This document shows, one piece after another, positions 21,174-42,945 of a stretch of DNA of 64,000 nt (positions are counted from its first letter, which is position 1; each line of letters opens with the position of its first letter). The notes beneath the pieces are model-generated. The model ran no database searches. It was not told where the DNA came from and saw only the letters and a program-made list of their open reading frames with translations. A program made the position numbers and the translations under genes. This DNA comes from a virus. Lineage: Duplodnaviria > Caudoviricetes. The DNA is taken from the IMG/VR virus record IMGVR_UViG_3300005934_000002, positions 20,783-84,782 of that record; one strand, 5' to 3'.

Positions 21174-21358
21174 AGTTAGCAGACAAAAAGATATTTTTTC
21201 TTTTAAGTCTTTTAGTTATAGGACTACTTGTAAGTTTAGGAGTGAATAGTTACTTACTGTCCGAAATTGGCGACATAAGAGAAATACTTGACGCTCAATT
21301 TGAAGTAATAAGACGCTTAATGGAAATGCAAGGTTTTAGATTCGAAGATTCAGCATGA
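21170..21358 (+). CDS. Small predicted single-pass membrane protein (62 aa)
   Basis: Hydrophobic IFFLLSLLVIGLLVSLGV; ATGA overlaps with both neighbours. Confidence 0.55.
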   Translation: MKLADKKIFFLLSLLVIGLLVSLGVNSYLLSEIGDIREILDAQFEVIRRLMEMQGFRFEDSA

Positions 21359-22725
21359 GCGAAGTAGATAGAATTAAAGAGGTAATGCCCGAGATTGATA
21401 AAATCTCTCCAACATTTTGTTTGGCAAAGTGGCATCACGTAACAATATATTTGCAGACAGGCGAAACACACAGTTGTTATCATCCTGCTCCGCACAAAAT
21501 ACCTCTTGATGGTCTTATAGATAATCCAAGTCAACTACATAATACTCCGCAAAAAAAGCAAGAACGTAAAGAAATGCTCGAAGGCGGAAAACCTTCTGGT
21601 TGCCAATACTGTTGGAATATTGAATGTATGGGTAAAGATTATGTAAGTGATAGGCATATTAAGACAGCAAGTATATACAGGCCAGATCGTATAGAAGAAA
21701 TTACAAGTAATCCTTGGGATTATAACATTAATCCAGAATACATAGAAGTTAATTTTAGTAACGAATGTAACTTTAAGTGTGGATATTGTCATCCTAAGTT
21801 TAGTACAAGTTATTATAATGAAATTAAAAAATACGGACCTTATAAAACCAGCACTACTCATAGAAACGATATTGACTGGTTTGAACTATATGAAGAAAGC
21901 AAAAACCCTTACGTAGAGGCATGGTGGAAGTGGTGGCCTGAAGTTAGTAAAACACTTAACATTTTACGTATTACAGGCGGCGAACCTTTAATGCATCGTA
22001 GTACATGGGAACTATTTGATAGGTTAGAAAAAGATCCTAAGCCTCATATTCAAATCGAACTTAATAGTAATATGGGTGTAAAAGAAAAACTTGTTAAAAA
22101 ACTTGTAGAGCGTATTAAACATCTCAAAGAAAATAATTGTATTAGAAGTTTTAAACTTTATACAAGTATAGATACATGGGGTGCAAAAGCAACTTACACA
22201 CGTAGAGGTTTAGATTTAGCATTATGGGAACGTAATCTTGATTATTATTTGACTAATCTTGGGTATCCAGTTACGTTTATGATCACATTTAATTTGTTTG
22301 CAGTAACAAGTTTTGACAAACTACTTAAAAAGATTCTTGAATGGAGATCTAAATATAATAAAAACAACAAAACACAGTGGCAAAATATTAGATTTGATAC
22401 ACCATACTTAAAAGAGCCTATCCAGTTTGATATGAATATACTGCCTAAAGAACAGTTTATGCCTTATATGACTAAGCATTTAAAATTTATTGCAGAACAT
22501 ACAGACGATAATGATAGAACAAAATTTAGTTTATTAGAATATGAAAGATTTCGTAGAGTTGTAGATTATATGCGTACTACTGAATATAATGAAGAAAAAC
22601 TTTTAGAAGGACACAAAAATTTTTATAACTGGTTTAAAGAGTATGATGAAAGAAGCGGAACTAAACTTACTGAAGTGTTTCCTGAATTAGAATCTTTTTA
22701 TTATAATTGTAGTTCTAAAGTATAA
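21355..22725 (+). CDS. Radical SAM enzyme 1, N-terminal twitch/SPASM-like Cys motif
   Basis: CNFKCGYC; GGEP; N-terminal FCLAKW...HSCYH...GCQYC. Confidence 0.9.
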   Translation: MSEVDRIKEVMPEIDKISPTFCLAKWHHVTIYLQTGETHSCYHPAPHKIPLDGLIDNPSQLHNTPQKKQERKEMLEGGKPSGCQYCWNIECMGKDYVSDRHIKTASIYRPDRIEEITSNPWDYNINPEYIEVNFSNECNFKCGYCHPKFSTSYYNEIKKYGPYKTSTTHRNDIDWFELYEESKNPYVEAWWKWWPEVSKTLNILRITGGEPLMHRSTWELFDRLEKDPKPHIQIELNSNMGVKEKLVKKLVERIKHLKENNCIRSFKLYTSIDTWGAKATYTRRGLDLALWERNLDYYLTNLGYPVTFMITFNLFAVTSFDKLLKKILEWRSKYNKNNKTQWQNIRFDTPYLKEPIQFDMNILPKEQFMPYMTKHLKFIAEHTDDNDRTKFSLLEYERFRRVVDYMRTTEYNEEKLLEGHKNFYNWFKEYDERSGTKLTEVFPELESFYYNCSSKV

Positions 22726-23740
22726 CATTATTGTTATAAATTTCAAATGCAAGTTTTTGATTGTGTGTTAAAATATCATCCATTTCATTAAGCATCTCTT
22801 TACATTCATCAATACTTAACATTTTAATACTGTCTAACAAATAGCGTATCTTATTCATACGGTAAGTATGATTTTCTTCAGTATCGTAACTTTCGTCCCA
22901 CGTAAATGTTTTAAATCCTAATTTGCGTATATACTCTAATGTATAAGGCGGAGCAACACATATAAAAGGGCGTTTATGTATCATTGCATTTACAGTTTTT
23001 TCGCTGAAGTTTCCTGTAGGCTGATAGAAACGTGTTTCGTTTGCAACTACACAAAAACTTTTTTCATAATACTCAGATAAACTTGCTGGACCGTTAACTT
23101 GTCCTTCCGGCCATTTTTTATGTGCAGGGTCTACACTTTCTAATTTGCTGTCTATACTTAATGGAGGATTAGTAAATGCCCAACTGTAATAACCTGGAGT
23201 ATCTTGTAGATGTTCTATAATTAAACGCCTGTGTAAACTATAACGCCAGTTGGGACAAATAAAATGTTTATCGATATTGTTTTTTATAGTGATGTTTCCG
23301 CCATTAAATTGATTACGTAAAAATATATCAAAACATTTTAATTCAAACGGATATGTTGTTATATGTTTTTCTATATTGTAATCACAAGTATATACTGTAA
23401 TTTTTGCTTTTATTTGTTTACTAAAATCTTCGATACTATCTAATTCATCTGCACGTAAATTTTCGCCACCTTTGAATTCACTAAAAAATCCTCTATTATG
23501 TGTTTTACCTTCTTCGTAAAAACTTAAAGGCTCGTACAAGTAAATGTCTAATGTTTTTAATTTATTAATTAGTTTAGGTGTAAGTGGGAACTTACTAAAG
23601 TCTATTTTATTAGTTCCAGTAAAGATTATATAAGGGCGTTCAGTTTTCCAATGTTGAAATAATTCGTGAAACATTTTTCCTGATTTATTACGCAAACTTT
23701 TAGTTGGCAAGTTGCCCCAGAAAATATCTTGAGTAAACAT
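22715..23740 (-). CDS. Hypothetical protein, possibly glycosyltransferase-related (ET...SEKT...PF family)
   Basis: C-terminal VANET...FSEKT...RPFI...LGFKTF motif shared with 26480. Confidence 0.5.
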   Translation of the reverse strand: MFTQDIFWGNLPTKSLRNKSGKMFHELFQHWKTERPYIIFTGTNKIDFSKFPLTPKLINKLKTLDIYLYEPLSFYEEGKTHNRGFFSEFKGGENLRADELDSIEDFSKQIKAKITVYTCDYNIEKHITTYPFELKCFDIFLRNQFNGGNITIKNNIDKHFICPNWRYSLHRRLIIEHLQDTPGYYSWAFTNPPLSIDSKLESVDPAHKKWPEGQVNGPASLSEYYEKSFCVVANETRFYQPTGNFSEKTVNAMIHKRPFICVAPPYTLEYIRKLGFKTFTWDESYDTEENHTYRMNKIRYLLDSIKMLSIDECKEMLNEMDDILTHNQKLAFEIYNNNVIL

Positions 23741-24244
23741 TTAATAATATGTGCCTGTTATTTGTAAAGTATATCTTGGGTCAACGCCAATGTTACTTGC
23801 GGCGTGTGGAGCATCGGCATCCCATAAAACATATTCGCCTGCTTTATAATTTACAACTCCTACTCCTTCAACTTCGAAATAGTGGCCTGGTTTCCATTCT
23901 TCTAAAAATACAATAGCACGTCTAACATCTACTCTTTGTTTTTTAAATACTTTACAGTATGTGTTGAAATGATCTACGTGTACAGGCATAATATCTAAAG
24001 TATCCATTCTATAAAAAACAAATCCCGGATCTTTGAAATTTAATAATCTTGCAACTTGTTCAGTCCATTCAGGCATAGGATTTTTACTATCGTACATTTT
24101 ACCTGTTGTTGTATCGTGTGTATAACCTTGTTTCCGCCAGGTATCTGCTTCTTCACCTGTAATAGGTTGTCTTACATATTCAAAATTTTTGTATTCATCT
24201 TTCCAGAAAACAGGAAGAAAACCTCTATAAAACATCTCTTTCAA
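23741..24244 (-). CDS. Putative Fe(II)/2OG oxygenase (HxD...H)
   Basis: PVHVD...PHAASN...RYTLQIT facial-triad pattern. Confidence 0.65.
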   Translation of the reverse strand: MKEMFYRGFLPVFWKDEYKNFEYVRQPITGEEADTWRKQGYTHDTTTGKMYDSKNPMPEWTEQVARLLNFKDPGFVFYRMDTLDIMPVHVDHFNTYCKVFKKQRVDVRRAIVFLEEWKPGHYFEVEGVGVVNYKAGEYVLWDADAPHAASNIGVDPRYTLQITGTYY

Positions 24245-25193
24245 TATCCAATGTTACGCAGTGAAAACCACCGCCAAGTGTTCGTTGATGCCTCATTGGC
24301 AACATAGCACATTCAATACCTTGTACTTCAAGTGCTTTACGTAGTGGCTCTTGATTTTTTTCAAGTGCAACTAACTTAGTATTTACACTAAAAAGATTCA
24401 TGTTAATCCAAGTACTTGCATTACACCATCTTGGATAATGACCTATGTCAACGGGATCCGGACACCATATAATATCCCAGTTTCTAAACGGTTCAGGTAA
24501 GTCGTTTTTGTTTTTAATTCTACTTGGGTTAGCAAGTAATAATCCTTCACGTAAAAAAGCAACAGTGCTGTCAATGTGCATATAACTATAAACATCTTGT
24601 AATAGATGTACTGTTGCTGTATTTCCTAATGCTTCTTGTAAAAGTGTAGCACCTAATTTGTTTCCGCTATTGCTAACAAGATATAGAACGTCTTCATTAG
24701 CACGTATAATATTAGCGGCATCAAATGCAGGCTCAAATTCGTTTAACGCAAGTACATCTTTATCTCCAATACAATCTGTATTATACAATTTACTTTCGTG
24801 ATAGCACGGAACTTGAACAGGACTTTTTAAGTGATGTTCAAATGCCTTCCATTCGTGCTTCCTTGCTCTAATAGGCATTGGTGTTGCAAGTGTTAAATCC
24901 CCGTGTACAAATACCGAGTCTCGAGGACAATAATTATAATAGTTACAATCAGTAGCATCAGGACGTACAACCTCAACTGATTCTCCTTTTAAAAAATTTA
25001 CAAAGACTTCTAAGTCTTCATTTGCTTCATCTATTACTTGCTGTGGATAAGATCCTTTTTGGATTTCGCTTTCGTCGGTTTTATCTGCAAAGTTTACACA
25101 ACGTAAACTAATATCAATGTCAATAGGAATCTTTGCATTATCTGCAATACCAACAATTACTTTTTTTAATTGACCCCATTCATTTTTAGACAT
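24225..25193 (-). CDS. Amidinotransferase (glycine / inosamine-phosphate amidinotransferase family)
   Basis: NEWGQLKKVIVG, CPRD, FDAAN (catalytic Asp), MHIDST (His), GGGFHCVTLD (Cys): complete triad of the pentein amidinotransferases. Confidence 0.9.
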   Translation of the reverse strand: MSKNEWGQLKKVIVGIADNAKIPIDIDISLRCVNFADKTDESEIQKGSYPQQVIDEANEDLEVFVNFLKGESVEVVRPDATDCNYYNYCPRDSVFVHGDLTLATPMPIRARKHEWKAFEHHLKSPVQVPCYHESKLYNTDCIGDKDVLALNEFEPAFDAANIIRANEDVLYLVSNSGNKLGATLLQEALGNTATVHLLQDVYSYMHIDSTVAFLREGLLLANPSRIKNKNDLPEPFRNWDIIWCPDPVDIGHYPRWCNASTWINMNLFSVNTKLVALEKNQEPLRKALEVQGIECAMLPMRHQRTLGGGFHCVTLDIERDVL

Positions 25194-25863
25194 ATGATAC
25201 TCTTCCAGGCCAGTGTTTTAAAATAAGATCTTCAACTTCAAGATTACTCATCCTTGAGTTTTCGCCTTTAATTTGTTGTACAATCGTTTCCATATGAGTA
25301 CACCAATTTTTAGTTGATTCTTCTAATTTATATCCTAAGTGGGGATAAACAAACTTAGAAACATAATTCATATGTTCTAAAATACTTGGGTGTTGATCTC
25401 CGTATACAGATTTTGTATTAGGAAAAATATTATTATGACCTGGTAAATTTTCTTTTATTTTTCTTATGTGTCCGTTAAAAATATTGTTAGTAAATTGTTG
25501 TACAAAAGCATTACCTTGTAAAATAGCAGTTTTGTTTCTTATATTGTCGTTTTCCTCACTCCAGTGATTTTTTAAATAATCATCTGAATAGTAATCACTG
25601 TTTAATATATTACCTTCAGTAATCCATTTATCTTCTTTAAATAAATCAACTCTTGTCCAACTACTCCACAATATGCAAATAATATCTTCGTTTGTAAAAT
25701 TATGTTTTTCATTTGCTTCAACTAATCTACAAGCAATACCTTGATTGCCCATTCCTGCTTTTGCATAATTATGAGTTTCACAATCTAAATCTTTAGAAAT
25801 AATATCACTCCAAGTAGGCCAAATATATTCTGTATATGAACAACCAAATGTAAACAATCTCAT
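25186..25863 (-). CDS. SGNH/GDSL-like protein
   Basis: N-terminal LFTFGCSYTE...N.A..G.GN and late DQHP motif; paralogs at 28611 and 61899. Confidence 0.5.
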   Translation of the reverse strand: MRLFTFGCSYTEYIWPTWSDIISKDLDCETHNYAKAGMGNQGIACRLVEANEKHNFTNEDIICILWSSWTRVDLFKEDKWITEGNILNSDYYSDDYLKNHWSEENDNIRNKTAILQGNAFVQQFTNNIFNGHIRKIKENLPGHNNIFPNTKSVYGDQHPSILEHMNYVSKFVYPHLGYKLEESTKNWCTHMETIVQQIKGENSRMSNLEVEDLILKHWPGRVSYV

Positions 25864-26444
25864 TGAAAAACTCCCATGGAAGGCAAATAAGGATAATCGT
25901 CACTTGTCCATAACTTATCCGGATTAACAGTTTTTAATTTTTCAATACCAAGTTGTGCAGTTTCAGGAGTCATATAGTAGTGATATCCTATTTGTTTTAT
26001 ATCTTGTTCTGCCCAAGGTTTGTCGTCAGTTCTACCATCGTATGCCATTTGCTTAAGAACTTGATAATCCTGTTCTGTAGGACAAAGTATTGCACCACCT
26101 CTACCAAGGCTTAACATTTTTTTATGTTGGAAACTTAAACACATTAATTGTCCTCGAATGTAACTTTCTTTTGCAAAATTTACAGCACCGTCAATGATTC
26201 TTGTACCACCAATAAAATAAAATCCCACCCAATTGGCATTTACAAAAGACCAATCTAAATTAAGTTTCATTAGTGTAAAAGGAATACTAATGTAAGTTCG
26301 TGTAGGAATGGTTAACTTTACTTGTGGATTGTCATATCTTAAAGAAAGTTCTATTGCATGGGTACAACTATCAACAGCAACAGCGTATGGAGCACCATAG
26401 TAATCTGCTATTTGTTTTTCGAATTCTTTGACTGTTTCAAACAT
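25860..26444 (-). CDS. Short DegT/DnrJ/EryC1/StrS-family PLP aminotransferase (194 aa)
   Basis: AVAVDSCTHAIELSL, PTRTY, IIDGA, LSFQHKK (PLP Lys), GRGGAIL, GYHYYM; about half the usual family length. Confidence 0.8.
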   Translation of the reverse strand: MFETVKEFEKQIADYYGAPYAVAVDSCTHAIELSLRYDNPQVKLTIPTRTYISIPFTLMKLNLDWSFVNANWVGFYFIGGTRIIDGAVNFAKESYIRGQLMCLSFQHKKMLSLGRGGAILCPTEQDYQVLKQMAYDGRTDDKPWAEQDIKQIGYHYYMTPETAQLGIEKLKTVNPDKLWTSDDYPYLPSMGVFQ

Positions 26445-26449
26445 ACACG

Positions 26450-26457
26450 TATTTATA
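26450..26457 (-). promoter_or_regulatory. T4-consensus late promoter TATAAATA driving the minus-strand 26444-22715 unit
   Basis: Exact TATAAATA on the minus strand, 5 nt before ATG 26444. Confidence 0.65.
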
Positions 26458-26479: not shown

Positions 26480-27430
26480 GTGAGTGAAAGCATGAATTTA
26501 ATATTATGGCATAGGTCTTGGAACCTGCAAAAATTATTGGATAAAATCCAAAATAATTCTAATCAGATGATTAGAGTATTAGGTGCTGAAGAATATGCTA
26601 TAATGGGTTGGGACGATCCTAATAATGAAAAAATACTTAGACAAATTAAAGAAGAAATATCTGCTTCTTCTAATACTGTTGAGTTTGTTTGTGGCGGATT
26701 TCCTACAAGCAACTCTTTTCATCCAGGGAAAAATGTAACATATTGGACAACATTTTGGCCAACTAAAACTTGGTATGAACTTAACAAATGGGGTCATGTT
26801 GCAAATAATAATAAGTTTACAAAAGCATATGTCAATCTAAATAATAAGCCTTGGCGTTTTCGTTGCGAAATGCTCGATCAATTATCTAAAAGAGATTTAA
26901 TTTCTAAAGGTGCAATTAGTTGGAATGAAACAAACAGAGATTATGACTTTAAACATTGGAAACAAGAACGTTTAATAATTGATCCAGAGTACGCTGAAAC
27001 TACAGAACAATATGGTTCTTTCCCACCGGCGTTTCTTGAAAGTTTTATGAGTCTTGTAAACGAATCAACAATGGACACAATTTTTCCTACAGAAAAAACT
27101 TACACACCTATCTATTTTAAAAAACCATTCTTAGTTTGGAGTGTACCTAATTTTCATAAGGCACTACAAGAATTAGGATTTGAATTATATGATGAAATTT
27201 TTGATTACAGTTTTGATTCAATTGAAGATAATAAAAAGAGATTAAATGCTATTTTAGATCAAGTTGAAAGTATTGTAGATAAAGATTATCAAAAGTTGTA
27301 TAATTTGGTTGCAGAAAAAGCAGAAAGAAACTATAATATACTAAAGAATATTAGGTTTGATATCAGCAAGGTACCTAACAGCATCTTGCAATTTGGCGGT
27401 TACGAACAATTAGTTAAGGATATGAAATGA
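26480..27430 (+). CDS. Hypothetical protein, possibly glycosyltransferase-related (ES...TEKT...PF family)
   Basis: LVNES...PTEKT...KPFL...LGFELY motif shared with 22715; start is GTG 26480 or ATG 26492. Confidence 0.5.
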   Translation: MSESMNLILWHRSWNLQKLLDKIQNNSNQMIRVLGAEEYAIMGWDDPNNEKILRQIKEEISASSNTVEFVCGGFPTSNSFHPGKNVTYWTTFWPTKTWYELNKWGHVANNNKFTKAYVNLNNKPWRFRCEMLDQLSKRDLISKGAISWNETNRDYDFKHWKQERLIIDPEYAETTEQYGSFPPAFLESFMSLVNESTMDTIFPTEKTYTPIYFKKPFLVWSVPNFHKALQELGFELYDEIFDYSFDSIEDNKKRLNAILDQVESIVDKDYQKLYNLVAEKAERNYNILKNIRFDISKVPNSILQFGGYEQLVKDMK

Positions 27431-28614
27431 GTACAATAGGATTTATTGGTGTAGGTAAATTAGGTGAACCTTGCGCCACTGAAATAATTAAAAAAGGTCA
27501 TAAGGTAAAAGGTTATGACGTTTCTTCTTTCAATAGTGAACATATTGAAGTAGCAGAAACTATTAAGGATTGTGTAAAAGATACAGACATTGTATTTGTT
27601 GCAGTACCAACACCACATCACCCAGACTATGACGGTAGACGTCCTACAAGTCATTTAGAGCCTAAGGACTTTGATTATTCTATTGTAATTGATGTATTAA
27701 AAGAAGCAAACAAACATATGAACAAAAAACAGTTGCTTGTTTTAATATCAACTGTATTACCTGGAACAACACGTAGAGAATTTGTTCCACTTGTAAACAA
27801 TACACGTTTTGTTTATAACCCTTATCTAATTGCAATGGGAACTGTAGGTTGGGATATGGTCAATCCTGAAATGATTATGATTGGCACTGACGACGGTAGC
27901 GAAACAGGTGACGCAAAACAGTTGCGTGATTTTTATGATACAGTAATGGAAAATAATCCACGTTACGTTATAGGAACATATGACGAGTGTGAATGTATTA
28001 AAGTTTTCTACAATACGTTTATTAGTACAAAACTAAGTCTTGTTAATATGATGCAAGACGTAGCACAAAAACAAGGTAACATTAATGTTGATATAGTTAC
28101 CAAAGCACTTGCTGATTCGACAATGCGTATTATGAGTGATCGCTACATGACAGCAGGTATGGGAGATGGTGGCAGTTGTCACCCAAGAGATAATATTGCA
28201 CTACGATATATGGCAAAAGAATTAGACTTGCAGTATGATATCTTTGATAGTATTATGACAGCAAGAGAAGTACAAGCAAAAAATCTTGCAAAATTTGTTG
28301 TTGAAACAAAAGAAAAGTTTGGTGGCAGTATTATATTAAATGGCATTTCATATAAACCGGGTGTAAGTTATATTGACGGAAGTTATGCACTTCTTGTTGA
28401 TCATTATATTAAAGAGTTAGGACACTCTGCAATTTATATCGATCCATTAGCAAGTGAAATGCCAAGTAGTGCGGCATCGATAGGAGGTATTGTTTTAATG
28501 TGCCATCCTGAAATGTATTTAGACTATTCAACTGACAGTATTATTATTGATCCTTGGAGACAAGTAGCGAAGAATCCGAAGTATATGGTGATACATTATG
28601 GAAACACAAGATGA
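27427..28614 (+). CDS. UDP-glucose/GDP-mannose dehydrogenase family protein
   Basis: GFIGVGKLG Rossmann motif, FVAVPTP, ISTVLPGT, YNP, KVFYNTFISTK, GGSCHPRD (catalytic Cys). Sugar substrate unknown. Confidence 0.9.
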   Translation: MSTIGFIGVGKLGEPCATEIIKKGHKVKGYDVSSFNSEHIEVAETIKDCVKDTDIVFVAVPTPHHPDYDGRRPTSHLEPKDFDYSIVIDVLKEANKHMNKKQLLVLISTVLPGTTRREFVPLVNNTRFVYNPYLIAMGTVGWDMVNPEMIMIGTDDGSETGDAKQLRDFYDTVMENNPRYVIGTYDECECIKVFYNTFISTKLSLVNMMQDVAQKQGNINVDIVTKALADSTMRIMSDRYMTAGMGDGGSCHPRDNIALRYMAKELDLQYDIFDSIMTAREVQAKNLAKFVVETKEKFGGSIILNGISYKPGVSYIDGSYALLVDHYIKELGHSAIYIDPLASEMPSSAASIGGIVLMCHPEMYLDYSTDSIIIDPWRQVAKNPKYMVIHYGNTR

Positions 28615-29408
28615 GATACACTAAGTCACAACCATTGCTATACTTTCCTGGCAAAGCAGGAAAAACTTTACAGTGGTATAATGGTGACGATTTAGAAAAC
28701 TATAATGAAAGCAATAAACCTGGCTGGAATTATTTTGGTACTAAAGACACATTGTTTTATGAATTTAACAGTTTAGGTTATAGAACAAGAGAATTAGATA
28801 AACTTAATGATTATATTCTTGTGTTTGGTTGCAGTTATACAGAAGGTACCGGATTATTCGAAAATGAAATATGGTGTAACGTATTAGGCAACGAATTAGG
28901 AATAGATATTTTAAATTTAGCAAAAGCAGGAACAGGGCCTGACGTTGTAAATCTTAACACACAATTATTTGTAAAAAATAAATTTGTAAAACCTCGTGCA
29001 GTTATTAATCAATGGCCGCAATCTACAAGAAAAAGTTTTGCTTATATAGAGCGTGAAGGACTATTTAAAAGACAATTAAGATTAGAAGATCGTAATGTTA
29101 ATAACTGGGTAGCAGGTGAAAATGCTGACAGCGATTGGTATTTTAACAGATGGTTAATGGAAGACGGTCAATTAGAATATGAAAACAGTTTGCATATTAA
29201 TAGTGTAACCAACCTATGGAATGCTTTAGGAGTTCCTGTTTTCAATTGGACCTTTGGCGGCGACTTTATGACAAAGTATAACAAAGAAATGGTATCTGTT
29301 TTAAAACTTGAAAACACAGACAGAGCAAGAGATAATGCACATGATGGTCCGTTAATACATAAAGAAGTAGTAGAAAAGATTAGAGATAAAATTGAATGTA
29401 TGATATAG
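28611..29408 (+). CDS. SGNH/GDSL-like protein
   Basis: LVFGCSYTEG...NLAKAG...AHDG; probable start is ATG 28611 (ATGA overlap) rather than 28554. Confidence 0.5.
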   Translation: MRYTKSQPLLYFPGKAGKTLQWYNGDDLENYNESNKPGWNYFGTKDTLFYEFNSLGYRTRELDKLNDYILVFGCSYTEGTGLFENEIWCNVLGNELGIDILNLAKAGTGPDVVNLNTQLFVKNKFVKPRAVINQWPQSTRKSFAYIEREGLFKRQLRLEDRNVNNWVAGENADSDWYFNRWLMEDGQLEYENSLHINSVTNLWNALGVPVFNWTFGGDFMTKYNKEMVSVLKLENTDRARDNAHDGPLIHKEVVEKIRDKIECMI

Positions 29409-31618: not shown

Positions 31619-32235
31619 ATTACGAAACAATAACACAATACGGAAGTTTTATAGAGTTAGACGTAGTTACTGATGCAGAGCAATTAGTTGCTTGGTCAAA
31701 TGATTTTAAATGGGTAAAATATAATCCACGTAAAGATGTTAATAGATGGGGATTAAGTATTACAAGTCTTGATGGAGGATTAACAGGAGTACCAGACTTA
31801 GATAGTTTATACGAATATAATCAAGAGAACGGAACTTCTTATAAAGAACAAGATTTTAAAACTCCTACACCAGTTCTCAATAAACAGATTCACGATATAC
31901 TAAAACCTTGGGATGGTTATTATTATAGAACACATTTCTTAAAATTTGGACCAGGTGGATTTTTCCCTCCACATAGAGATTGGAATTACCATACAGGCAC
32001 ACCTGATAATTTTAGATTAATAATGCCTTTAAGGAATGTTAATCCTCCTTCGTTTAACTTTGTATATGAAGATAAAACTTTGCATTGGGAAACAGGAAGA
32101 ATGTATTTCTTAGATACTCAACGTATGCACTATCTATTTAATAGCAGTTTTACCGACAGTTATTGGATGGTAGTTAATGTTCATTTGAATACAGAAACCA
32201 TAATGAAAACATTAGAGAGGTTAAATCAGAAGTAA
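31615..32235 (+). CDS. Fe(II)/2OG oxygenase, AspH-like
   Basis: FFPPHRD...YFLDTQRMHYLFN. Confidence 0.7.
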   Translation: MNYETITQYGSFIELDVVTDAEQLVAWSNDFKWVKYNPRKDVNRWGLSITSLDGGLTGVPDLDSLYEYNQENGTSYKEQDFKTPTPVLNKQIHDILKPWDGYYYRTHFLKFGPGGFFPPHRDWNYHTGTPDNFRLIMPLRNVNPPSFNFVYEDKTLHWETGRMYFLDTQRMHYLFNSSFTDSYWMVVNVHLNTETIMKTLERLNQK

Positions 32236-33233
32236 TGTATAGTTATGGAGATATCACTTCAATACATTTAGAAGTAACTTCTAAGTGTCAAGCACGATGT
32301 CCAATGTGTCCTCGTAGAATTCACGGAGGTCCATTATTAGATAGTTTTGATTTAGAAGAAATAGACTTAGGAACTTTTGTTAATTGGTTTCCGAGAGACT
32401 TTGTACGTCAATTAAAATTTCTTAATATGTGTGGTAACTTAGGAGATCCTATTGTTGCAAAAGATACATTAGAAATTTTCAAATACTTACGCGAAACAAA
32501 TTCTGAAATGACTTTACAAATGCACACAAATGGTAGTGGCAGATCAGAAGCATGGTGGAAAGAACTTGCCCAATTAAAAATTAAAGTAGTATTTGGTATA
32601 GACGGTTTAGAAGACACTCATGCACTGTATAGAATATCTACAGATTGGTCACGTATTATAAAAAATGCAAAAACCTATATTGAAGCAGGTGGCGATGCAC
32701 GTTGGGATATGCTTGTATTTGAACACAACGAAGATCAGGTAGATGCTTGTGAACAAATGAGTAAAGACTTAGGATTTAAAGGTTTTAGCATTAAACATAC
32801 AACAAGATTTAAAGACGGTAAGTTTGATGTGTTAGATGACGATTATAATATAACTCATACATTATATCCATCTAAGAAAAGTTTAGAAATGATTGAACCT
32901 GCTAAACAAGCACAAAGTGAAATACTGCCCACAATTAGTTGCAAAGCAAAAAATGATAGTCAAATGTATATAAGTGCTAACGGTAATGTAAGTCCGTGCT
33001 GTTGGTTAGATAACGAATGGCATCCGCAACATAGTCCAAGTAGATTGGATTATAAAGTTAAAATAAAAGAATATCCTAATTTGCATAAGAATACTATACA
33101 AGAAATATTTGATTCAAACTTCTTTAACAAGATAGAAAAAACATGGACTACTTGTGGTATGCTTGAATGTTCTAAACAGTGTGGAAGTTTTGACAAATTA
33201 AACAAACAGTTTGAAAGGATAGAGCATGAGTAA
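32235..33233 (+). CDS. Radical SAM enzyme 3, C-terminal SPASM/twitch motif
   Basis: CQARCPMC; GNLGDP; ISC...GNVSPCCW...CSKQC. Confidence 0.9.
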   Translation: MYSYGDITSIHLEVTSKCQARCPMCPRRIHGGPLLDSFDLEEIDLGTFVNWFPRDFVRQLKFLNMCGNLGDPIVAKDTLEIFKYLRETNSEMTLQMHTNGSGRSEAWWKELAQLKIKVVFGIDGLEDTHALYRISTDWSRIIKNAKTYIEAGGDARWDMLVFEHNEDQVDACEQMSKDLGFKGFSIKHTTRFKDGKFDVLDDDYNITHTLYPSKKSLEMIEPAKQAQSEILPTISCKAKNDSQMYISANGNVSPCCWLDNEWHPQHSPSRLDYKVKIKEYPNLHKNTIQEIFDSNFFNKIEKTWTTCGMLECSKQCGSFDKLNKQFERIEHE

Positions 33234-34527
33234 AACGTTCTGTCCATTACCTTGGATACATTTAGCAACCAGACCAAATGGTGATGTACGTGTTTGTTGT
33301 ACAGCAAATGCTTCTGGTGCAGGTAAAGAAGATGACAAAACAGCAGGACTTGTAAAGCAAGATGGTGTTGCTATGAATTTACGTGACCATACTATTGAAG
33401 AAGTATGGAACAGTGAACATATGCGTAGAACAAGACTGCAAATGTTAAATGATGAAATACCTGAAAGTTGTCGCAAGTGTTTTTATGAAGAATCAAAAGG
33501 TATTGTTAGTAAACGTCAATGGGAAACAGAAGTATGGAAAGAGCGTTTAGACATTGATAGTATTGTTGCAAAAACAGATGACCAAGGAAACATACCTGTT
33601 GACATTCCTTACTTTGACTTACGTTTGGGCAATGTGTGTAACCTAAAATGTGTAATGTGTTCGCCTCATGATAGTTCAAGTTGGATTAAAGAGTGGAAAC
33701 TTTTGTATCCTAAGTATACAAACAAAGAATTAAAGCGTGACCAAAGTTGGGACGAAAACTTTGATTATACTTGGTATAAGAAAGGTAGTTTCTTAGAGTC
33801 AATGAAGGATCAAGCACAGTATATTAAAGAGTTATATTTTGCAGGTGGCGAGCCTTTAATGATTCCTGAACATTATAATATTTTACAGTTTATGGTAGAT
33901 GAAGGATATGCAAAAGATTGTTGTCTACGTTACAATTCAAATGGCACAGAATTAAATGAAAAACTATTTGTGTTATGGGCATCATTTAAAGAAGTTACTT
34001 TTAATTTTAGTATTGATGCTTATGGCGAAAAAAATGATTACATTAGATATCCAAGTCAGTGGAATATTATTGAAAAGAATTTACAAATATTAGATAGTTG
34101 TGGATCTAATATTAGAATTAACATTGCCTCAGCAGTACAATTACTTAATGTATCATACATAGATGAATTAGCAGAATGGAAAGCAAGTCAACAGTTTAGT
34201 AAAATTAATCTAATGCCGTTTGGCGGCGGACTTATCAGTACACACCTTGTTTATTTTCCAAGTTACTTAAATGTTAGAGTATTACCGCAAGAACTTAAAT
34301 TGTTTACAAAACAAAAACTTGAAACATTTATAGATAGACAAAAATTTAACAATGATTGGAATAATAGTCCTATGGGCAAACGTAGATGGTTAGGTCTTGT
34401 AGATTATATGATGGCAGAAGATTGGTCAGACAAATTGCCTCAAACAATAGATTATTTAGAAACTATAGATAAATCCAGAGGAACTGATTTTAGAAAAACG
34501 TTTCCAGAGTTAGGAGAGTGTATCTAA
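33226..34527 (+). CDS. Radical SAM enzyme 4, N-terminal twitch-like motif
   Basis: FCPLPW...NGDVRVCC...SCRKC, then CNLKCVMC; AGGEPL. Confidence 0.9.
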   Translation: MSKTFCPLPWIHLATRPNGDVRVCCTANASGAGKEDDKTAGLVKQDGVAMNLRDHTIEEVWNSEHMRRTRLQMLNDEIPESCRKCFYEESKGIVSKRQWETEVWKERLDIDSIVAKTDDQGNIPVDIPYFDLRLGNVCNLKCVMCSPHDSSSWIKEWKLLYPKYTNKELKRDQSWDENFDYTWYKKGSFLESMKDQAQYIKELYFAGGEPLMIPEHYNILQFMVDEGYAKDCCLRYNSNGTELNEKLFVLWASFKEVTFNFSIDAYGEKNDYIRYPSQWNIIEKNLQILDSCGSNIRINIASAVQLLNVSYIDELAEWKASQQFSKINLMPFGGGLISTHLVYFPSYLNVRVLPQELKLFTKQKLETFIDRQKFNNDWNNSPMGKRRWLGLVDYMMAEDWSDKLPQTIDYLETIDKSRGTDFRKTFPELGECI

Positions 34528-35642: not shown

Positions 35643-36160
35643 CAATTACAGGACACCTATCTGGACTTGGCAAAGAGTTGTACAATAGAATACCTAATAG
35701 TATCGGATTTGATTTAGGAAGTCATCATGATATTGCTAATCCAGACACATGGATTAGTACAGCATTAAATTGTGATGTTTTTATTAATAATGCGTATTGT
35801 GGTTTTCATCAAGTTAATTTATTAGAAAAATTTTTTAAAGAATGGCAATTTACAAATAAGACAATTATTAATATAGGAAGTTGTGCGTCAGATATTTCAA
35901 AGATGGATTATCTTAAAGAAATTGATTTTTATCCTATTCATAAAAAAGCCTTAGATGATGCTTGTACAAGATTGCAACACGTAAAGAAAACTTGTAGAAT
36001 AGTAAATGTTAAGATAGGTTGGATGGATACTCCATTAGTTAAAGACGTAGATGTAGAAAAAATTTCTGTTGATAAAGTTGCAGATGTTATTTTAGATTGT
36101 TTAACAAATAAAAATATTTCTAATGTTACTGTAGGAGGCGATTACGTATGGAACCAATAA
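35630..36160 (+). CDS. Short SDR-like NAD(P)-binding oxidoreductase
   Basis: AITGHLSGLG, FINNA, INIGS, YxxxK (YPIHK). Confidence 0.75.
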   Translation: MERIAITGHLSGLGKELYNRIPNSIGFDLGSHHDIANPDTWISTALNCDVFINNAYCGFHQVNLLEKFFKEWQFTNKTIINIGSCASDISKMDYLKEIDFYPIHKKALDDACTRLQHVKKTCRIVNVKIGWMDTPLVKDVDVEKISVDKVADVILDCLTNKNISNVTVGGDYVWNQ

Positions 36161-36861
36161 AACGTATTCAAGTATTACAGCCACCTGAAAATGGTTTAGC
36201 CACTGCATATAATGATGTATGGTTTAACATATATCCAGGACCGCTTGGTTTAATGTGTAGTGGAGGCACAGATAGTTCCTTAATGTTATATCTAACGTTA
36301 TTACATAGTGACGATCCTATCCACGTTTTTACTCTTGCTAATAATCCGTTAGAACTAAAAAATATAACTGCTGTAACTGCTGTATTAAACAAGTGTGTAA
36401 AGTTAACAAATAAACATAATGTAATACATCACGTAGTACACATGGAAGGTAATAAACCAAATGGTGCAACAGTGTTAGGAGATATGATTAAACAAGTCGG
36501 AGTTGATATTAATGTTGCACAAATTGGAGTAACAGCAAATCCGCCTAAAGATATTTTAGAAAAAATGAATAATGATTATTCGCCAAGAGATAAGTCAAGA
36601 GATTTTCCTGATCCTAATCTTGAATTAATTGATGCTACAGCACAAGGATATCCTTGGTTGTATACTCCTTGGAGAATACATAACAAACAAACTATTGCAA
36701 AAATTTATAAAAAACTAAATGTATTAGAGGAACTATTTCCATTAACTTTTAGTTGTGAATATTATCCATCAAATTATGAAAGGCCAGATCCAGGTATGGA
36801 ACACTGTGGCGAATGTTGGTGGTGTGAGGAAAGACAATGGGGATTTGGCCGACTAAAATAG
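36148..36861 (+). CDS. QueC-like PP-loop ATPase with C-terminal Zn motif
   Basis: CSGGTDS PP-loop; TFSC...CGECWWCEER matches the QueC TxSC...CGxCxxCxxR pattern. Confidence 0.7.
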   Translation: MEPIKRIQVLQPPENGLATAYNDVWFNIYPGPLGLMCSGGTDSSLMLYLTLLHSDDPIHVFTLANNPLELKNITAVTAVLNKCVKLTNKHNVIHHVVHMEGNKPNGATVLGDMIKQVGVDINVAQIGVTANPPKDILEKMNNDYSPRDKSRDFPDPNLELIDATAQGYPWLYTPWRIHNKQTIAKIYKKLNVLEELFPLTFSCEYYPSNYERPDPGMEHCGECWWCEERQWGFGRLK

Positions 36862-38269: not shown

Positions 38270-38808
38270 GAATACTTGTAACAGGAAATCCAAATTATCA
38301 AGGCTTATGTAAGGGAATATACGAAGCGTATAATCATAACTTTGTAGAATTTATAGGACGCTGGAACGGCTGGGATTTAACTGATTATGATAAGGTAGCC
38401 GATTATGCTAAAGGGTATGAAGTCTTTGTAAACAGTCAATACGGACCTAATGGCGAACAAGTTGAATTGTTTAATGCTGTATATGATAAGTTTGAAGAAG
38501 GACATATTATTAATATTAGCAGTACCAGTGCATACTGGAATAACGGACCAGAAGATTATCTTAAAAATAAAAAACAATTAGATTTTATAAGCAAAGAAAA
38601 ATCTCAAATTGCTTGTTGGGGAAATACACCTATTAGAGTAAGCAATATTGCTTTCGGTCAGTTGAAATCGAAAACACAAGAACAACGAGATAGTAAAAAT
38701 AAAATTAGTTTAGAAGAAGCAGGTAAACTTGTTAAGTGGGTAATTGATAGTCCTTGGACTATGAATTTACATTATCTTGCTGTTGATCCGATACAAAGAG
38801 ATCAGTAA
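38266..38808 (+). CDS. Short SDR-like NAD(P)-binding oxidoreductase
   Basis: LVTGNP..QGL, FVNS, INISS, YxxxK (YLKNK); paralog of 35630. Confidence 0.7.
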   Translation: MRILVTGNPNYQGLCKGIYEAYNHNFVEFIGRWNGWDLTDYDKVADYAKGYEVFVNSQYGPNGEQVELFNAVYDKFEEGHIINISSTSAYWNNGPEDYLKNKKQLDFISKEKSQIACWGNTPIRVSNIAFGQLKSKTQEQRDSKNKISLEEAGKLVKWVIDSPWTMNLHYLAVDPIQRDQ

Positions 38809-39913
38809 GTTCTGGACAATAATCAAGAACAGTAGTATCACGTAGTTTATCTAAATCCTTAGTAAAGTTAATAAACTTATCAATATGTTTTCCTAAGAAT
38901 TCATCTTGTGTATAATTTACATTAGGTAATTTGTAGTCAATGTTTTGTAATATTTCATTAGGTAATATTCTTGGATTTAAATATGCCGGCTGTGCTACAA
39001 CGTTATTAAAATAAATGCTCCAATGATCTTGTTTTACTTTGTCATACCAACTTTGTATTTTACCTAAGTGTGCAATGTTATATGCCATAACAGTAACAGC
39101 AATAATAACCCTGTCAAAATTATAGTGTTTTAAATTTTCATTTAGTTGTGCAAACGTAAAGTTCTTGCCGCCTCTAATGTATTCATACAATCCGTCTGTA
39201 CCTTCTACGCTGACAGTCCATTTAGTATGCCCATATTGTTTTGCAAGTTCGTGAACTTCTTCGTCAACAATAGTACCATTAGTAGTCCAATCAAGCGTAA
39301 CGTTCTTAGCAATGCCTAAGTCAATAAACTTTTTAAGGATAATTTTGTTTGCAGGTTCCATATAAGGTTCACCGCCTTTAATGCTTAGGTAACGCAAATT
39401 CATAAAAGGTGTAGGATCTTCAAATAGTCTTTCTATAATCTGTTCGCTCTTGTTAGTGTAACCAAATTCTGGATTATCAATTCTTCTAAAATATGGGTTA
39501 CCGTTTTCTGCAAGTTTAAGATCGTCCTTTACCCAAGCACTTGAATTGATACCATCGCACATACGGCATTTCAAATTACATATATTGCTCATATTGAATT
39601 CCAAAAACATAATATCGTGGAAGTTTTTGGTATAGTCGTAATTGGTTCCTTCAAGCATTGGATTCAAAATATCACGGAAGAATAAGCGTCTACTATGACC
39701 TACTGCGGCTTCTTTTAAGCGGCATTGTTCGCACTCGGGTGGCAACTGACCCATACGCATAGAATCCTTTGTGTATGACGCTGTAATGCTGTTTAAGACG
39801 GTGTTTAAAGACGATTTAAGCACGTTGCCATAGCGTTTAGTGTATACTCCGTCGGGTACAATATCGCCATTAAAGCGTACCAAAATACTATGCCAAGGTG
39901 CGTAACATTTCAT
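38759..39913 (-). CDS. Radical SAM enzyme 6, degenerate N-terminal twitch-like motif
   Basis: KCYAPW...NGDIVPDG...ECEQC; CNLKCRMC; KGGEPY. Confidence 0.9.
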   Translation of the reverse strand: MKCYAPWHSILVRFNGDIVPDGVYTKRYGNVLKSSLNTVLNSITASYTKDSMRMGQLPPECEQCRLKEAAVGHSRRLFFRDILNPMLEGTNYDYTKNFHDIMFLEFNMSNICNLKCRMCDGINSSAWVKDDLKLAENGNPYFRRIDNPEFGYTNKSEQIIERLFEDPTPFMNLRYLSIKGGEPYMEPANKIILKKFIDLGIAKNVTLDWTTNGTIVDEEVHELAKQYGHTKWTVSVEGTDGLYEYIRGGKNFTFAQLNENLKHYNFDRVIIAVTVMAYNIAHLGKIQSWYDKVKQDHWSIYFNNVVAQPAYLNPRILPNEILQNIDYKLPNVNYTQDEFLGKHIDKFINFTKDLDKLRDTTVLDYCPELTDLFVSDQQQDNVNS

Positions 39914-40449: not shown

Positions 40450-40885
40450 ACTTTTCTCCGAACGCAGATCTAAGATCGCTGTGTAGTTTATCTAACACAA
40501 CAGTAGGTTGATACACACTTACATTATCCCAGTCTACCATTTCTATATTATCGCCATCTATAATAATATTACTCAAAACCCAGTCGCCGTGTGCATAAGG
40601 TTGCGTTTCTTCAATGTTTTTTAAACAATAATTATAAATCTTAATTATAAACTCTGAAGTATGTTCAAACTTACTTGCAGGTACTCCGGGAACTTCTTTT
40701 AACTCTACAAACATTTTACCATTAGCACAACCACTGTTTAAAATATATCCAGGACGTAGTTCTTCCATAATATCAATATGTTCGTCATAATACTCTTTAT
40801 TTTCAAATGACCATTCTTTTCTGTAAAAGCCATTTCCTTTATAAACTTTTCTTTGCTTTTCGATGTTTTCTTTAATTAATTCCAT
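40424..40885 (-). CDS. Minimal protein-kinase-like phosphotransferase (APH / choline-kinase-like, 153 aa)
   Basis: HGDWVLSNII (catalytic loop HGD-x4-N) and VDWD (Mg-binding loop). Confidence 0.7.
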   Translation of the reverse strand: MELIKENIEKQRKVYKGNGFYRKEWSFENKEYYDEHIDIMEELRPGYILNSGCANGKMFVELKEVPGVPASKFEHTSEFIIKIYNYCLKNIEETQPYAHGDWVLSNIIIDGDNIEMVDWDNVSVYQPTVVLDKLHSDLRSAFGEKFDEVLSQN

Positions 40886-41915
40886 AAGCCTTTGCTACCT
40901 CCGGGATATAATCTTTTAAACTGCATCCTCTTTGTTTGTCAAATATCATTGTCCATTTTTTAAATGCTTCTTGTTGTTCTGTGTCTGCAGGTTGATCAAC
41001 CCAGTACTTAAATTTTTCAGGACAGTATTGTTTTATTTCATCAGGAGCATTTTTTGTATTAAGATATTCTGGATTCATTAATAAGTTATCAAAAAAATCA
41101 AAGCCGTATTTTTTGCACCAATCTATAATTGTTTGATAATGATGTAAATTAGTAACCTGAATAGTCGGGCCAAGACTTTTATATTTTACTATCTCTGCCC
41201 ATTTAAGCATATTAGTTTCTACTTCTTCCCATTTACTTCCCCAACGTATATAATCATTAACTTTGCCAATACCGTCTATACTAAAACACATATTAACAGT
41301 TTCAAAACGTTTTAATTCTTCATATATGTTAGGATTCATAATTGTAGCATTAGTATTAAATCTTACTTCAACTGAACTATCTAATTTTTGTAAAAATTTA
41401 TGTAAGCCTTTTACCATCATAGGTTCACCGCCTGTAAGATAAACTTCTCTAAGTTCAGGTAACTTAGCCAAGTATTCGCCACGTTCGTCGGTGTACCAAT
41501 CGAAGTTTGGAAAAGGTTGATTACCCCACGGTGATTCAATACCTTGTTTAAGCATTGCTTGATGTTCTTTTGCAAGACTGCTTGATACACCAGGATAACA
41601 CATAGTACATTGTAAGTTACAATTACTACCAAAGCGTAAATCTAAATGACTAATACCTGGACCATATTGTCTTGGACGATTACGTTGACTTTTTTCGCCA
41701 GCGTCTTCTTGTATTTTACATTTTTCACAAGCAGAAGGAAATTCTCCCTTTTCAAATGTAGCAACAGCATCTTTATATATTTTACTATTACGCCAATCAT
41801 CTACAGTGTGTGTTGTTACATTCTCTACGTTTGAAGGTTCTGTACTAATACAACACAAACGATATTCGCCAGAAGTTTTTACACAGACTTGATGATCTAA
41901 ATATTTACACCTCAC
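40872..41915 (-). CDS. Radical SAM enzyme 7, N-terminal twitch-like motif
   Basis: RCKY...SGEYRLCC...ACEKC; CNLQCTMC; TGGEPM. Confidence 0.9.
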   Translation of the reverse strand: MRCKYLDHQVCVKTSGEYRLCCISTEPSNVENVTTHTVDDWRNSKIYKDAVATFEKGEFPSACEKCKIQEDAGEKSQRNRPRQYGPGISHLDLRFGSNCNLQCTMCYPGVSSSLAKEHQAMLKQGIESPWGNQPFPNFDWYTDERGEYLAKLPELREVYLTGGEPMMVKGLHKFLQKLDSSVEVRFNTNATIMNPNIYEELKRFETVNMCFSIDGIGKVNDYIRWGSKWEEVETNMLKWAEIVKYKSLGPTIQVTNLHHYQTIIDWCKKYGFDFFDNLLMNPEYLNTKNAPDEIKQYCPEKFKYWVDQPADTEQQEAFKKWTMIFDKQRGCSLKDYIPEVAKAYGIN

Positions 41916-42888
41916 CGCAAGTTACCTCACAAATTTTAAATCTATTTTCTTTTGGTTGTGTAAGCAAGTCACTTTCAACTATGTCTTGTAGATTCATATT
42001 GTTTACATTAGGCCACGTAATACTATTACATTCTTCAGCATATGGACTGTTAGGATTTTTAGCATAACGATCACTTAACAAATAACAACAAGGAAATACT
42101 TCTCCTGTATGACTTATTTGTATTTTTTGTTTTCGTTGCCATTTACAACTAATACAACCTTTGTCTAATCCTACTTTTAATACTTTTTCTAAACGCTCTA
42201 CATTATCTAAATGTTTTTTATCATACTTTATAGTACGTGCTTGTTCTTTCTTAGTTGCCTTAAATTTTTCTACTGCTTCTGATACTATACTATCTATTGC
42301 AGTAAATGTATAACCGCCGTTAATATCAAAAACAACAAACCCCATATCTTTAGATAATTGCTCACACTGTTCTATTTGATGTTTGTTGTGATCAAATACA
42401 AGCATACGCCATCTTGCTAAACCACCTGCGTCTATAAATGCTTTTGCATTTTCCATTACACTTTCCCAAACAACATGACGCCTATACAAATGATTAGTAT
42501 CTTCTAATCCGTCAATACTAAACGTAATAACACCTTGCGGAAAATTTCTTAATTCTTGTGCAATTAACCTATACAAATTTGGTTTGCCAATACCACCATT
42601 AGTGTGTATCATTATTTTGCATTTTAGTTTTTTTGCATATTGTAGTGCAAATGGTAAATTTGGATTCATTAAAGGATCACCATATGCACCATTAAAAATA
42701 ATTTCTTCTACACCTTTTGCATTGTCTACAATGTTTTTAAAAGTATCCATATCCATATGACCTAAAGGCATATGAGGGTTAACAGTCACACCGTCGATGT
42801 TACGTGAGCAGTTTCCACACATAGCATTACAATGACTTGTAAAGTCAATTACTATTGTTTTTAGATCATTTTTCGATAAGAATTGCAT
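41905..42888 (-). CDS. Radical SAM enzyme 8, C-terminal SPASM/twitch motif
   Basis: CNAMCGNC; GAYGDP; ISC...GEVFPCCY...CEVTC; paralog of 32235. Start placed at ATG 42888 (MQFLSK), just downstream of TAAATA. Confidence 0.88.
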   Translation of the reverse strand: MQFLSKNDLKTIVIDFTSHCNAMCGNCSRNIDGVTVNPHMPLGHMDMDTFKNIVDNAKGVEEIIFNGAYGDPLMNPNLPFALQYAKKLKCKIMIHTNGGIGKPNLYRLIAQELRNFPQGVITFSIDGLEDTNHLYRRHVVWESVMENAKAFIDAGGLARWRMLVFDHNKHQIEQCEQLSKDMGFVVFDINGGYTFTAIDSIVSEAVEKFKATKKEQARTIKYDKKHLDNVERLEKVLKVGLDKGCISCKWQRKQKIQISHTGEVFPCCYLLSDRYAKNPNSPYAEECNSITWPNVNNMNLQDIVESDLLTQPKENRFKICEVTCGEV

Positions 42889-42893
42889 ACTGT

Positions 42894-42899
42894 ATTTAA
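42894..42899 (-). promoter_or_regulatory. Putative late promoter TAAATA, 4-5 nt before ATG 42888
   Basis: Minus strand TAAATA, then a few nt, then ATG; no SD. Confidence 0.55.
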
Positions 42900-42940: not shown

Positions 42941-42945
42941 CTGAT

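Follow-up and report, generated by a model that had tools for sequence, protein, structure and literature searches.

In the synthesis of Pseudomonas O-antigen, WbpA, WbpB and WbpE (a nucleotide-sugar 6-dehydrogenase, an oxidase and a DegT-type aminotransferase, respectively) lead to UDP-2-acetamido-3-amino-uronic acids, and the StsC/StrB1 and BtrN/BtrR enzymes belong to the pathways of streptidine and of 2-deoxystreptamine. Amidinotransferase genes are also found in phages. In the Campylobacter phages CP220 and CPt10, the gene lies in an interchangeable module with five radical S-adenosylmethionine (SAM) genes, which was noted in 2010 with no function given (PMC2853527). In the Synechococcus phage S-SCSM2R, ORF305 is annotated as 'AHBA synthase', ORF308 as a 2-oxoglutarate (2OG) oxygenase and ORF309 as 'inosamine amidinotransferase' (PMC12801897); the 2025 paper on this phage refers to ORF305, ORF306 and ORF309 as "antibiotic synthesis genes" and leaves their role open (PMC12801897). 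Here we analyze a five-gene cassette in a 64,000-nt stretch of viral DNA (the window), which lies within the 84.8-kb IMG/VR record IMGVR_UViG_3300005934_000002, itself estimated to be ~23% genome-complete. The cassette (22715-26457, minus strand) encodes a putative half-size aminotransferase of the DegT family, an SGNH-like protein, an amidinotransferase, a probable small Fe(II)/2OG oxygenase and a glycosyltransferase-like protein. Its DegT, oxygenase and amidinotransferase proteins are 52%, 28% and 65% identical to ORF305, ORF308 and ORF309 of S-SCSM2R, respectively, which also lie among glycosyltransferases. We suggest that these genes are expressed late and serve as a tailoring branch of a phage-encoded glycan pathway, in which a sugar receives a guanidino group, a reading to which we give about an even chance of being correct.

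The argument begins with the company that the genes keep. The amidinotransferase gene occurs in at least 194 IMG/VR viral contigs, from which 80 loci were fetched and compared together with that of S-SCSM2R. Among the resulting 81 loci, the short DegT gene is present in 78 and the oxygenase gene in 77; the glycosyltransferase-like gene is found in 45, a gene for a radical SAM enzyme with a twitch domain in 42, a UDP-sugar dehydrogenase gene in 38 and the SGNH-like gene in 18. The DegT, amidinotransferase and oxygenase genes thus form a triad that stays adjacent while the remaining neighbors are replaced, the order being either DegT-amidinotransferase-oxygenase or DegT-oxygenase-amidinotransferase. 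In some loci the UDP-sugar dehydrogenase gene comes directly after the amidinotransferase gene. A first-pass annotation of this DNA had staked its proposal of a joint pathway on the co-occurrence of the aminotransferase and amidinotransferase genes in relatives, and with 78 of 81 loci the two genes do indeed travel together.

The association is not symmetrical. The short DegT gene is present in at least 592 viral contigs, and the DegT and amidinotransferase families each comprise thousands of metagenome proteins. When 46 DegT loci with at least 4.5 kb on both sides were inspected, 36 had both the amidinotransferase and the oxygenase gene, seven had neither, and a single one of the two was present in one and two loci (Fisher p 5e-6, with kinship among contigs ignored). 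The oxygenase gene, then, tracks the amidinotransferase rather than the aminotransferase. A DegT gene also occurs without an amidinotransferase gene, and an amidinotransferase gene without a DegT gene is rare; the simplest reading of this asymmetry is that an amino compound is the finished product in many phages, and that the amidinotransferase and the oxygenase together constitute an optional later step. In the DegT-only loci, the gene sits within tandem arrays of GT25-like paralogues (~290 aa each), which number as many as six. Four viral contigs (L199, L212, L217 and L220) have six such paralogues in tandem directly before the short DegT gene, and no amidinotransferase gene within 6 kb.

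Carbohydrate enzymes surround the triad in each of the three contexts that we examined. Loci of the S-SCSM2R-like group contain several glycosyltransferases, a 2OG oxygenase, GT25-like proteins and a NodU/TobZ-type carbamoyltransferase, and a third group of loci contains a carbohydrate-type sulfotransferase, GT25-like proteins, the UDP-sugar dehydrogenase directly after the amidinotransferase and an oxygenase of family PF05118. Our literature searches on carbamoyltransferase or radical SAM genes in the glycan clusters of cyanophages turned up the S-SCSM2R paper only. The conversion of a keto group to an amine and then to a guanidine, as put forward in the first-pass annotation, is therefore retained here for a sugar-like substrate, on the strength of the co-occurrence in 78 of 81 loci, the asymmetry and the carbohydrate neighbors; the analogy to streptidine and other cyclitols that went with it is not retained, as discussed below.

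The central enzyme of the cassette is the 322-aa amidinotransferase (24225-25193, minus strand). Comparison with solved structures confirms its membership of the AGAT/StrB1 family, which has the pentein fold, and transfer from arginine with formation of ornithine is predicted. The best match is StrB1 of S. griseus (PDB 1bwd; E 2.4e-62, 214 bits, residues 3-319), followed by AGAT (1jdw; 1.7e-38), HsvA (5wpi; 8e-35) and SxtG (6u1r; 3.5e-30). The homology to StrB1 is full-length and the phage protein is of the short form that lacks the AGAT insertions. D158, H206 and C312 align with D179, H227 and C332 of StrB1, so that the Asp-His-Cys triad is intact as first annotated. In the same alignment, D92, D208 and R225 coincide with the arginine-site residues of AGAT. 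None of these six residues varies among 14 phage sequences, the most distant of which is 64% identical. The chemistry expected is that of the StrB1/AGAT family, in which the amidino group of L-arginine is first bound to the cysteine and then handed on to a primary amine. Among the profile collections Pfam, PHROGs and NCBIfam, the only match to this protein is PHROG 25854, which is listed with function unknown; the cassette proteins other than the DegT protein and the amidinotransferase have no match in any of the three.

Resemblance to StrB1 does not extend to a close relationship. In a family tree of 123 sequences, which has a midpoint root only, the phage amidinotransferases form one clade (Shimodaira-Hasegawa-like approximate likelihood ratio support, SH-aLRT, 97) within a 21-row group of unnamed metagenome representatives. 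StrB1 was placed in this tree indirectly, by PDB searches of the representatives, and the names of the nearest clusters are uninformative metagenome labels. By that placement, the StrB1-type representative P0132 lies, along with a clade of cellular enzymes linked to SbnA and SbnB, on the opposite side of the midpoint-rooted tree from the phage clade. The scores against 1bwd follow the same order: 443 bits for P0132, 342 for an SbnA/B-linked cellular enzyme and 214 for the phage enzyme, which is ~43% identical to P0132. StrB1 is in fact the best PDB match of every clade, an unrelated one included. Its position as top PDB match consequently says nothing about the acceptor, because it reflects the sampling of the PDB and because the SbnA/B-linked enzymes are closer to StrB1 than the phage enzymes are. 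Orthology to StrB1 was considered and is rejected, in view of the separate phage clade and of bit scores below those of the SbnA/B-linked enzymes; the phylogeny that the first-pass annotation had recommended as a check thus sets the phage enzymes apart from the StrB1 type, in a clade of their own. When viral contigs were scanned with the nearest outgroup, P0122, only the phage family was recovered.

The putative aminotransferase (194 aa; 25860-26444, minus strand) is unusual in its size. It matches Pfam family PF01041 with 61.9 bits against a gathering cut-off of 19.8 (8e-17), and covers positions 24-91 of that profile and, by NCBIfam, positions 184-258. Members of the family have ~360-400 residues in a two-domain architecture, and ~370 would be expected here, whereas in the phage protein, by profile and PDB alignments, the C-terminal domain is missing altogether, as are ~50 internal residues. 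The AlphaFold2 model (pLDDT 92) is a single domain that corresponds to the pyridoxal phosphate (PLP) domain alone. What is kept is the cofactor site: D85 in I-I-D-A-A, S104 and K109 in S-F-x-x-K-K, and a G-R-G-G turn are invariant in 47 sequences, and D85 and K109 (the pyridine-nitrogen aspartate and the Schiff-base lysine) align with the motifs of 7b0m and 3bn1. A Foldseek search with the model returns aminotransferases of nucleotide sugars and cyclitols, namely GDP-perosamine synthase, AHBA synthase, ArnB, BtrR, WbpE and PseC at E-values from 2e-9 to ~1e-7, with TM scores of 0.6-0.7 when normalized to the query and TMt of 0.33-0.39. The top 120 database relatives are all ~195-205 aa long, and the short DegT proteins are thus a large family of their own. 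We regard the protein as a member of the DegT/DnrJ/EryC1/StrS family by its sequence and PLP site, not by its architecture, and its aminotransferase activity as putative.

The third member of the triad is a 167-aa protein (23741-24244, minus strand), for which a start at the ATG at 24235 is likelier than one at 24244, as the relatives and the Atlas record begin at 24235. It has the features expected of a cupin/double-stranded β-helix enzyme with a metal site: H89-x-D91, H147, N151, R157-Y and T163 (in Q-x-T) are invariant in 14 sequences, down to 22% identity. Of these, H89, D91 and H147 fit the HxD...H metal triad, and R157 fits the basic residue that binds the 2OG carboxylate. Its Atlas model has a pTM of 0.92 and aligns with a TM score of 0.93 to viral clusters, in one of which 19% of the members carry PF05118. 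A profile alignment (hhalign) with a PF05118 paralogue at 36837 in the window is weak (38%, E 3e-4), and the PDB profile search gave only AtsK at E 1.6. Both the residue pattern and the model support a probable small Fe(II)/2OG oxygenase.

The last gene of the cassette (22715-23740, minus strand) encodes a 341-aa protein whose AlphaFold2 model (pLDDT 83) has a GT-B fold. Foldseek finds only GT-B enzymes (GtfC, the glycosyltransferase of phage HY126, T4 β-glucosyltransferase and EarP) with probabilities of up to 0.99. In a VIA exhaustive alignment, FUT11 (Z 10.5) and FUT9 (Z 10.0) rank first, and nearly all of the 45 chains with Z of at least 8 are GT-B. The protein has no Pfam match; its Atlas feature score for GT10 (0.81) gives a lead and no more, and an invariant stretch, E235-T236...S246-E247-K248, recalls the GT10 motif. 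Model comparison hence supports a GT-B fold and a resemblance to GT10 fucosyltransferases. The second gene (25186-25863, minus strand) encodes a 225-aa protein that is called SGNH-like on the basis of motifs: G7-C8-S9, G37-x-G39-N40 and D156-x-H158 (in D-x-H-P) are invariant in its alignment. It has no match in Pfam, PHROGs or NCBIfam, a PDB search gave only a chance match, and its paralogous relationship with the family to which window ORF 28554-29408 belongs is weak. The gene identities of the first-pass annotation have on the whole held up against these comparisons. Its 2OG oxygenase gains support from the invariant H89-x-D91, H147 and R157 and from the Atlas structure match, and its GT-like protein from the fold found by Foldseek and VIA; its DegT/StrS aminotransferase keeps its family (PF01041) and PLP residues and loses the full-size architecture, and its SGNH-like protein keeps the motif blocks without gaining a hidden Markov model or PDB match.

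Expression of the cassette is predicted to be late. The octamer TATAAATA lies at 26450-26457 on the minus strand, 6 nt 5′ of the first ATG, and occurs only once in the 64 kb when both strands are counted, where ~10 per strand would be expected. Its core, ATAAATA, is depleted about tenfold in the window (six observed, ~62 expected); the six sites are at 9931, 14753, 26450 (minus strand), 42934, 50331 (minus strand) and 55645 (minus strand), and four of them precede gene starts by 6-34 nt. In 13 distinct upstream regions of relatives, (C/T)ATAAATA stands exactly 6 nt before the ATG of the short DegT gene. The element is kept where this gene heads a divergent operon, and is missing where the gene lies inside an array transcribed in a single direction. 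The late -10 element of T4 is located ~6 nt before the transcription start site, and the 6-nt spacing seen here, combined with that geometry, implies an almost leaderless late mRNA. A scan of the operon for sigma-70 promoters and terminators gave background level only. By its placement, its conservation in relatives and its avoidance elsewhere, the element is identified as a T4-type late promoter. The five ORFs share the minus strand, each overlapping or directly adjoining the next, and the picture of one five-gene unit behind an exact promoter motif, drawn from the sequence at the outset, is borne out in its coordinates, in the uniqueness of the motif in the window and in the spacing shared by 13 relatives.

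The cassette is flanked by genes of related character. Converging on it is the gene for the twitch-domain radical SAM enzyme (21355-22725, plus strand; NCBIfam NF033640, 3e-92), which is a candidate alcohol-to-ketone dehydrogenase and whose membership in the cassette is only putative. Diverging from it are two plus-strand genes (26480-28614), one for a 316-aa GT-B paralogue (26480-27430) and the other for a UDP-sugar 6-dehydrogenase (Pfam PF00984/PF03721; phrog_9148, 4e-93). The 316-aa protein belongs to a family that phmmer ties to 22715-23740 (4e-7). With the 341-aa protein it forms one of three paralogue pairs that flank the operon, the pairs being 20274-21173/29396-30085 (unknown family c7), 22715-23740/26480-27430 (GT-B/GT10-like) and 25186-25863/28554-29408 (SGNH-like), and their arrangement suggests that the region grew through duplication.

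How might these enzymes cooperate? If the cassette modifies a sugar as we propose, a carbon of that sugar would first be brought to the keto level, by the small Fe/2OG oxygenase, by the twitch radical SAM enzyme or by a dehydrogenase of the host or the island. For the last option, the substrate could be a UDP-uronic-acid-type precursor from the adjacent UDP-sugar dehydrogenase, a route that is plausible because this dehydrogenase is so often adjacent. The half-size DegT enzyme would then use PLP to convert the keto sugar to an amino sugar. The amidinotransferase would take the amidino group of L-arginine onto Cys312, release ornithine and transfer the group to the new primary amine, which would give a permanently cationic guanidino sugar. 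The small oxygenase may either prepare the specific acceptor or hydroxylate the guanidino product, and the GT10-like GT-B enzyme would transfer or extend the modified sugar. The SGNH-like protein could contribute as an optional acyl esterase or transferase.

This order of oxidation, transamination and amidination, which is implied by the phage gene set, is shared with the StsC/StrB1 and BtrN/BtrR systems, and the possible oxidant would be the twitch radical SAM enzyme or the Fe/2OG oxygenase. The phage genes differ from those systems in that they lie in glycosyltransferase arrays, in that the aminotransferase is half-size and an oxygenase is paired with the amidinotransferase, and in having no linked pair for phosphorylation and dephosphorylation. 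The resemblance to the WbpA/WbpB/WbpE pathway lies in a UDP-sugar 6-dehydrogenase beside a DegT protein; the short DegT protein also has WbpE and a related UDP-GlcNAc3NA aminotransferase as relatives in the PDB. No WbpB-type oxidoreductase was identified in the phage, however, and the final group in that pathway is an acetyl or acetamidino group added by unrelated enzymes, rather than a guanidine derived from arginine.

Several considerations weigh against a sugar as the substrate. The product is so far undetected, and we know of no natural guanidino hexose or pentose that has been described in any glycan. Because the short DegT protein is without a C-terminal domain and ~50 core residues, its aminotransferase activity is not assured. 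The co-occurrence counts are uncorrected for the relatedness of contigs, and they vary with the choice of peptide patterns in the scans. In addition, the island is rich in SPASM radical SAM enzymes and in Asp/Asn-hydroxylase-like oxygenases, families that are often directed at peptides or proteins, and the nearest cellular amidinotransferases appear from their SbnA/SbnB and nonribosomal peptide synthetase (NRPS) context to use an acceptor of the amino-acid type.

The last two points lead to the alternative that survives best, although we consider it rather improbable: the enzyme may guanidinylate a free diamino acid or a polyamine, or else side chains of the lysine/ornithine type in a virion protein or a ribosomal peptide, as a step in a radical SAM/hydroxylase hypermodification of proteins or peptides by the island. 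The closest cellular relatives, at no more than 42% identity, are encoded in a cluster with an SbnA-like PLP enzyme, an SbnB-like protein of the ornithine-cyclodeaminase family, a 1,450-aa adenylation-carrier protein and a phosphopantetheinyl transferase, and this SbnA/SbnB and NRPS-like context points to an amino-acid acceptor for those enzymes. The island itself has eight radical SAM genes, of which several encode SPASM domains, alongside several Asp/Asn-hydroxylase-like proteins of family PF05118. CP220 and CPt10 add to this an amidinotransferase with five radical SAM genes (PMC2853527), and two of the CP220 radical SAM families are homologous (~1e-13) to window ORFs 32235-33233 and 41905-42951. 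The CP220 amidinotransferase is 25% identical to that of the window and also has two GT-A-like genes nearby, but neither a short DegT protein nor a small oxygenase is detectable there. Finally, a second and distant S-SCSM2R amidinotransferase, ORF266, paralogous to the first, was found in the virion proteome (PMC12801897). Against all this, DegT and the glycosyltransferase arrays persist in L074-type loci that have no radical SAM gene within 8 kb, the substrates of DegT-family enzymes are keto sugars and cyclitols and not amino acids, and no candidate for a precursor peptide was identified.

A few further observations concern the same genes. The cellular SbnA/SbnB-amidinotransferase cluster (L082-L161, e.g., L091:8001-9005) is conserved across numerous Alpha- and Gammaproteobacteria, Acidobacteriota, Verrucomicrobiota and further groups. 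Its adenylation-carrier protein contains hexapeptide repeats, and its other products include an S41 peptidase and membrane proteins of the TraX/DUF418 type; the cluster appears to be an uncharacterized pathway to a building block of the guanidino-diaminopropionate type. ORF266 of S-SCSM2R (L163:17354-18247) matches the window amidinotransferase with E 5e-12 and adjoins KdsA, KdsB and two 2OG oxygenases. The CP220 module (68914-83966 of its record) also contains a PAP2 phosphatase. In three island ORFs (33226-34527, 38759-39913 and 40872-41915) the SPASM domain is at the N-terminus (residues ~3-85), before the radical SAM core, while ORFs 32235 and 41905 have it in the usual C-terminal position.

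A second alternative, to which we assign a low probability, is that the cassette makes a streptidine-like aminocyclitol or aminoglycoside-like small molecule, either a guanidino-cyclitol or a pseudo-oligosaccharide, that acts against the host ribosome or against competing phages. It was the analogy behind the first-pass annotation, and the S-SCSM2R authors' label of "antibiotic synthesis genes" for the homologues goes in the same direction. StrB1 is the best solved relative of the amidinotransferase, yet the phage clade lies apart from the StrB1-type representative and StrB1 is the top PDB match elsewhere too. A DegT-type enzyme is present, the neighboring twitch radical SAM enzyme recalls BtrN, and relatives have a carbamoyltransferase of the TobZ/NodU type; but no cyclitol genes are found near the cassette, and Pfam comparison of ~50 window ORFs revealed no inositol-phosphate synthase, inositol dehydrogenase or inosamine kinase, in a record that is a fragment. 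A HAD phosphatase and an APH-like kinase had also been cited from elsewhere in the island. The phosphatase at 45807 is confirmed (2e-21), whereas the kinase at 40424 has a weak match (E 0.003) under the Pfam family cut-off. Both lie 14-20 kb from the cassette, and neither accompanies the triad in its other contexts. Moreover, arrays of up to six glycosyltransferase paralogues suit a glycan better than a pseudo-trisaccharide. With a separate clade, no inositol genes found and a weak, unlinked kinase, the streptidine analogy was given up. The phosphatase gene is in a row with genes for a nucleotidyltransferase of the sugar-phosphate type and a TauD-family dioxygenase (45807-47917), and this row is likely a nucleotide-sugar activation unit of the island.

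DNA hypermodification, with amidination of a 7-deazaguanine derivative or of a glycosylated hydroxymethyl base, is the least probable alternative by our estimate, for although the window encodes GTP cyclohydrolase I/FolE (60836-61522, minus strand; PF01227, 1.5e-38), a QueE-like radical SAM enzyme (59774-60658, minus strand; phrog_2076, 2e-52) and, inside the tailoring island, a QueC/Asn-synthase-like PP-loop protein (36148-36861, plus strand), although the GT-B protein resembles T4 β-glucosyltransferase about as well as it does other GT-B enzymes, and although CP220, which has the amidinotransferase module, replaces all dG with a 7-deazaguanine derivative (bioRxiv 10.1101/2023.04.13.536721), the que genes are 33 kb off and stand beside the triad in no related locus, papers on deazaguanines and glycosylated DNA mention no such enzymes, and QueD, QueF, DpdA/TGT, a cytosine methyltransferase and a TET-like enzyme were not seen among the scanned ORFs, bearing in mind that a record of only ~23% of the genome cannot show that a gene is absent from the phage.

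Returning to a guanidino sugar as the product, we may ask where the glycan would be placed. None of the island ORFs of at least 100 aa has a hydrophobic transmembrane segment, which means that the island encodes no flippase, polymerase or membrane phosphoglycosyltransferase and that assembly would be cytoplasmic. A membrane-linked pathway encoded by the island (undecaprenyl, Wzx/Wzy) was rejected on the same ground. For the glycosyltransferases of cyanophages, a role in modifying the host envelope is what is usually assumed (PMC12801897). The virion as the destination is favored by late expression, by the solubility of the enzymes and by a position beside fiber genes. It is conceivable, although we would call it tentative, that large marine T4-like phages, and Campylobacter phages with different partners, make a guanidino-sugar glycan in the cytoplasm, late in infection and with soluble enzymes only, with which they decorate the fibers or capsid of their own virions.

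Finally, we note what the cassette would mean if our proposal is correct. Abundant ocean phages would make a permanently cationic sugar by way of an uncharacterized three-enzyme module. A guanidino sugar would represent a class not known from any glycoconjugate, and guanidinylation would join the chemistry of phage glycans. The proposal would offer an explanation of why big cyanophage genomes contain such large and variable glycosyltransferase and oxygenase arrays, and would correct the published label of "antibiotic synthesis genes" in S-SCSM2R. For enzymology, the short DegT protein would provide a new minimal architecture, a PLP sugar aminotransferase scaffold of 194 residues, and the phage enzymes a new clade of amidinotransferases. 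Because the same triad is present in S-SCSM2R, which has been isolated and whose host can be cultured, the question is directly testable.

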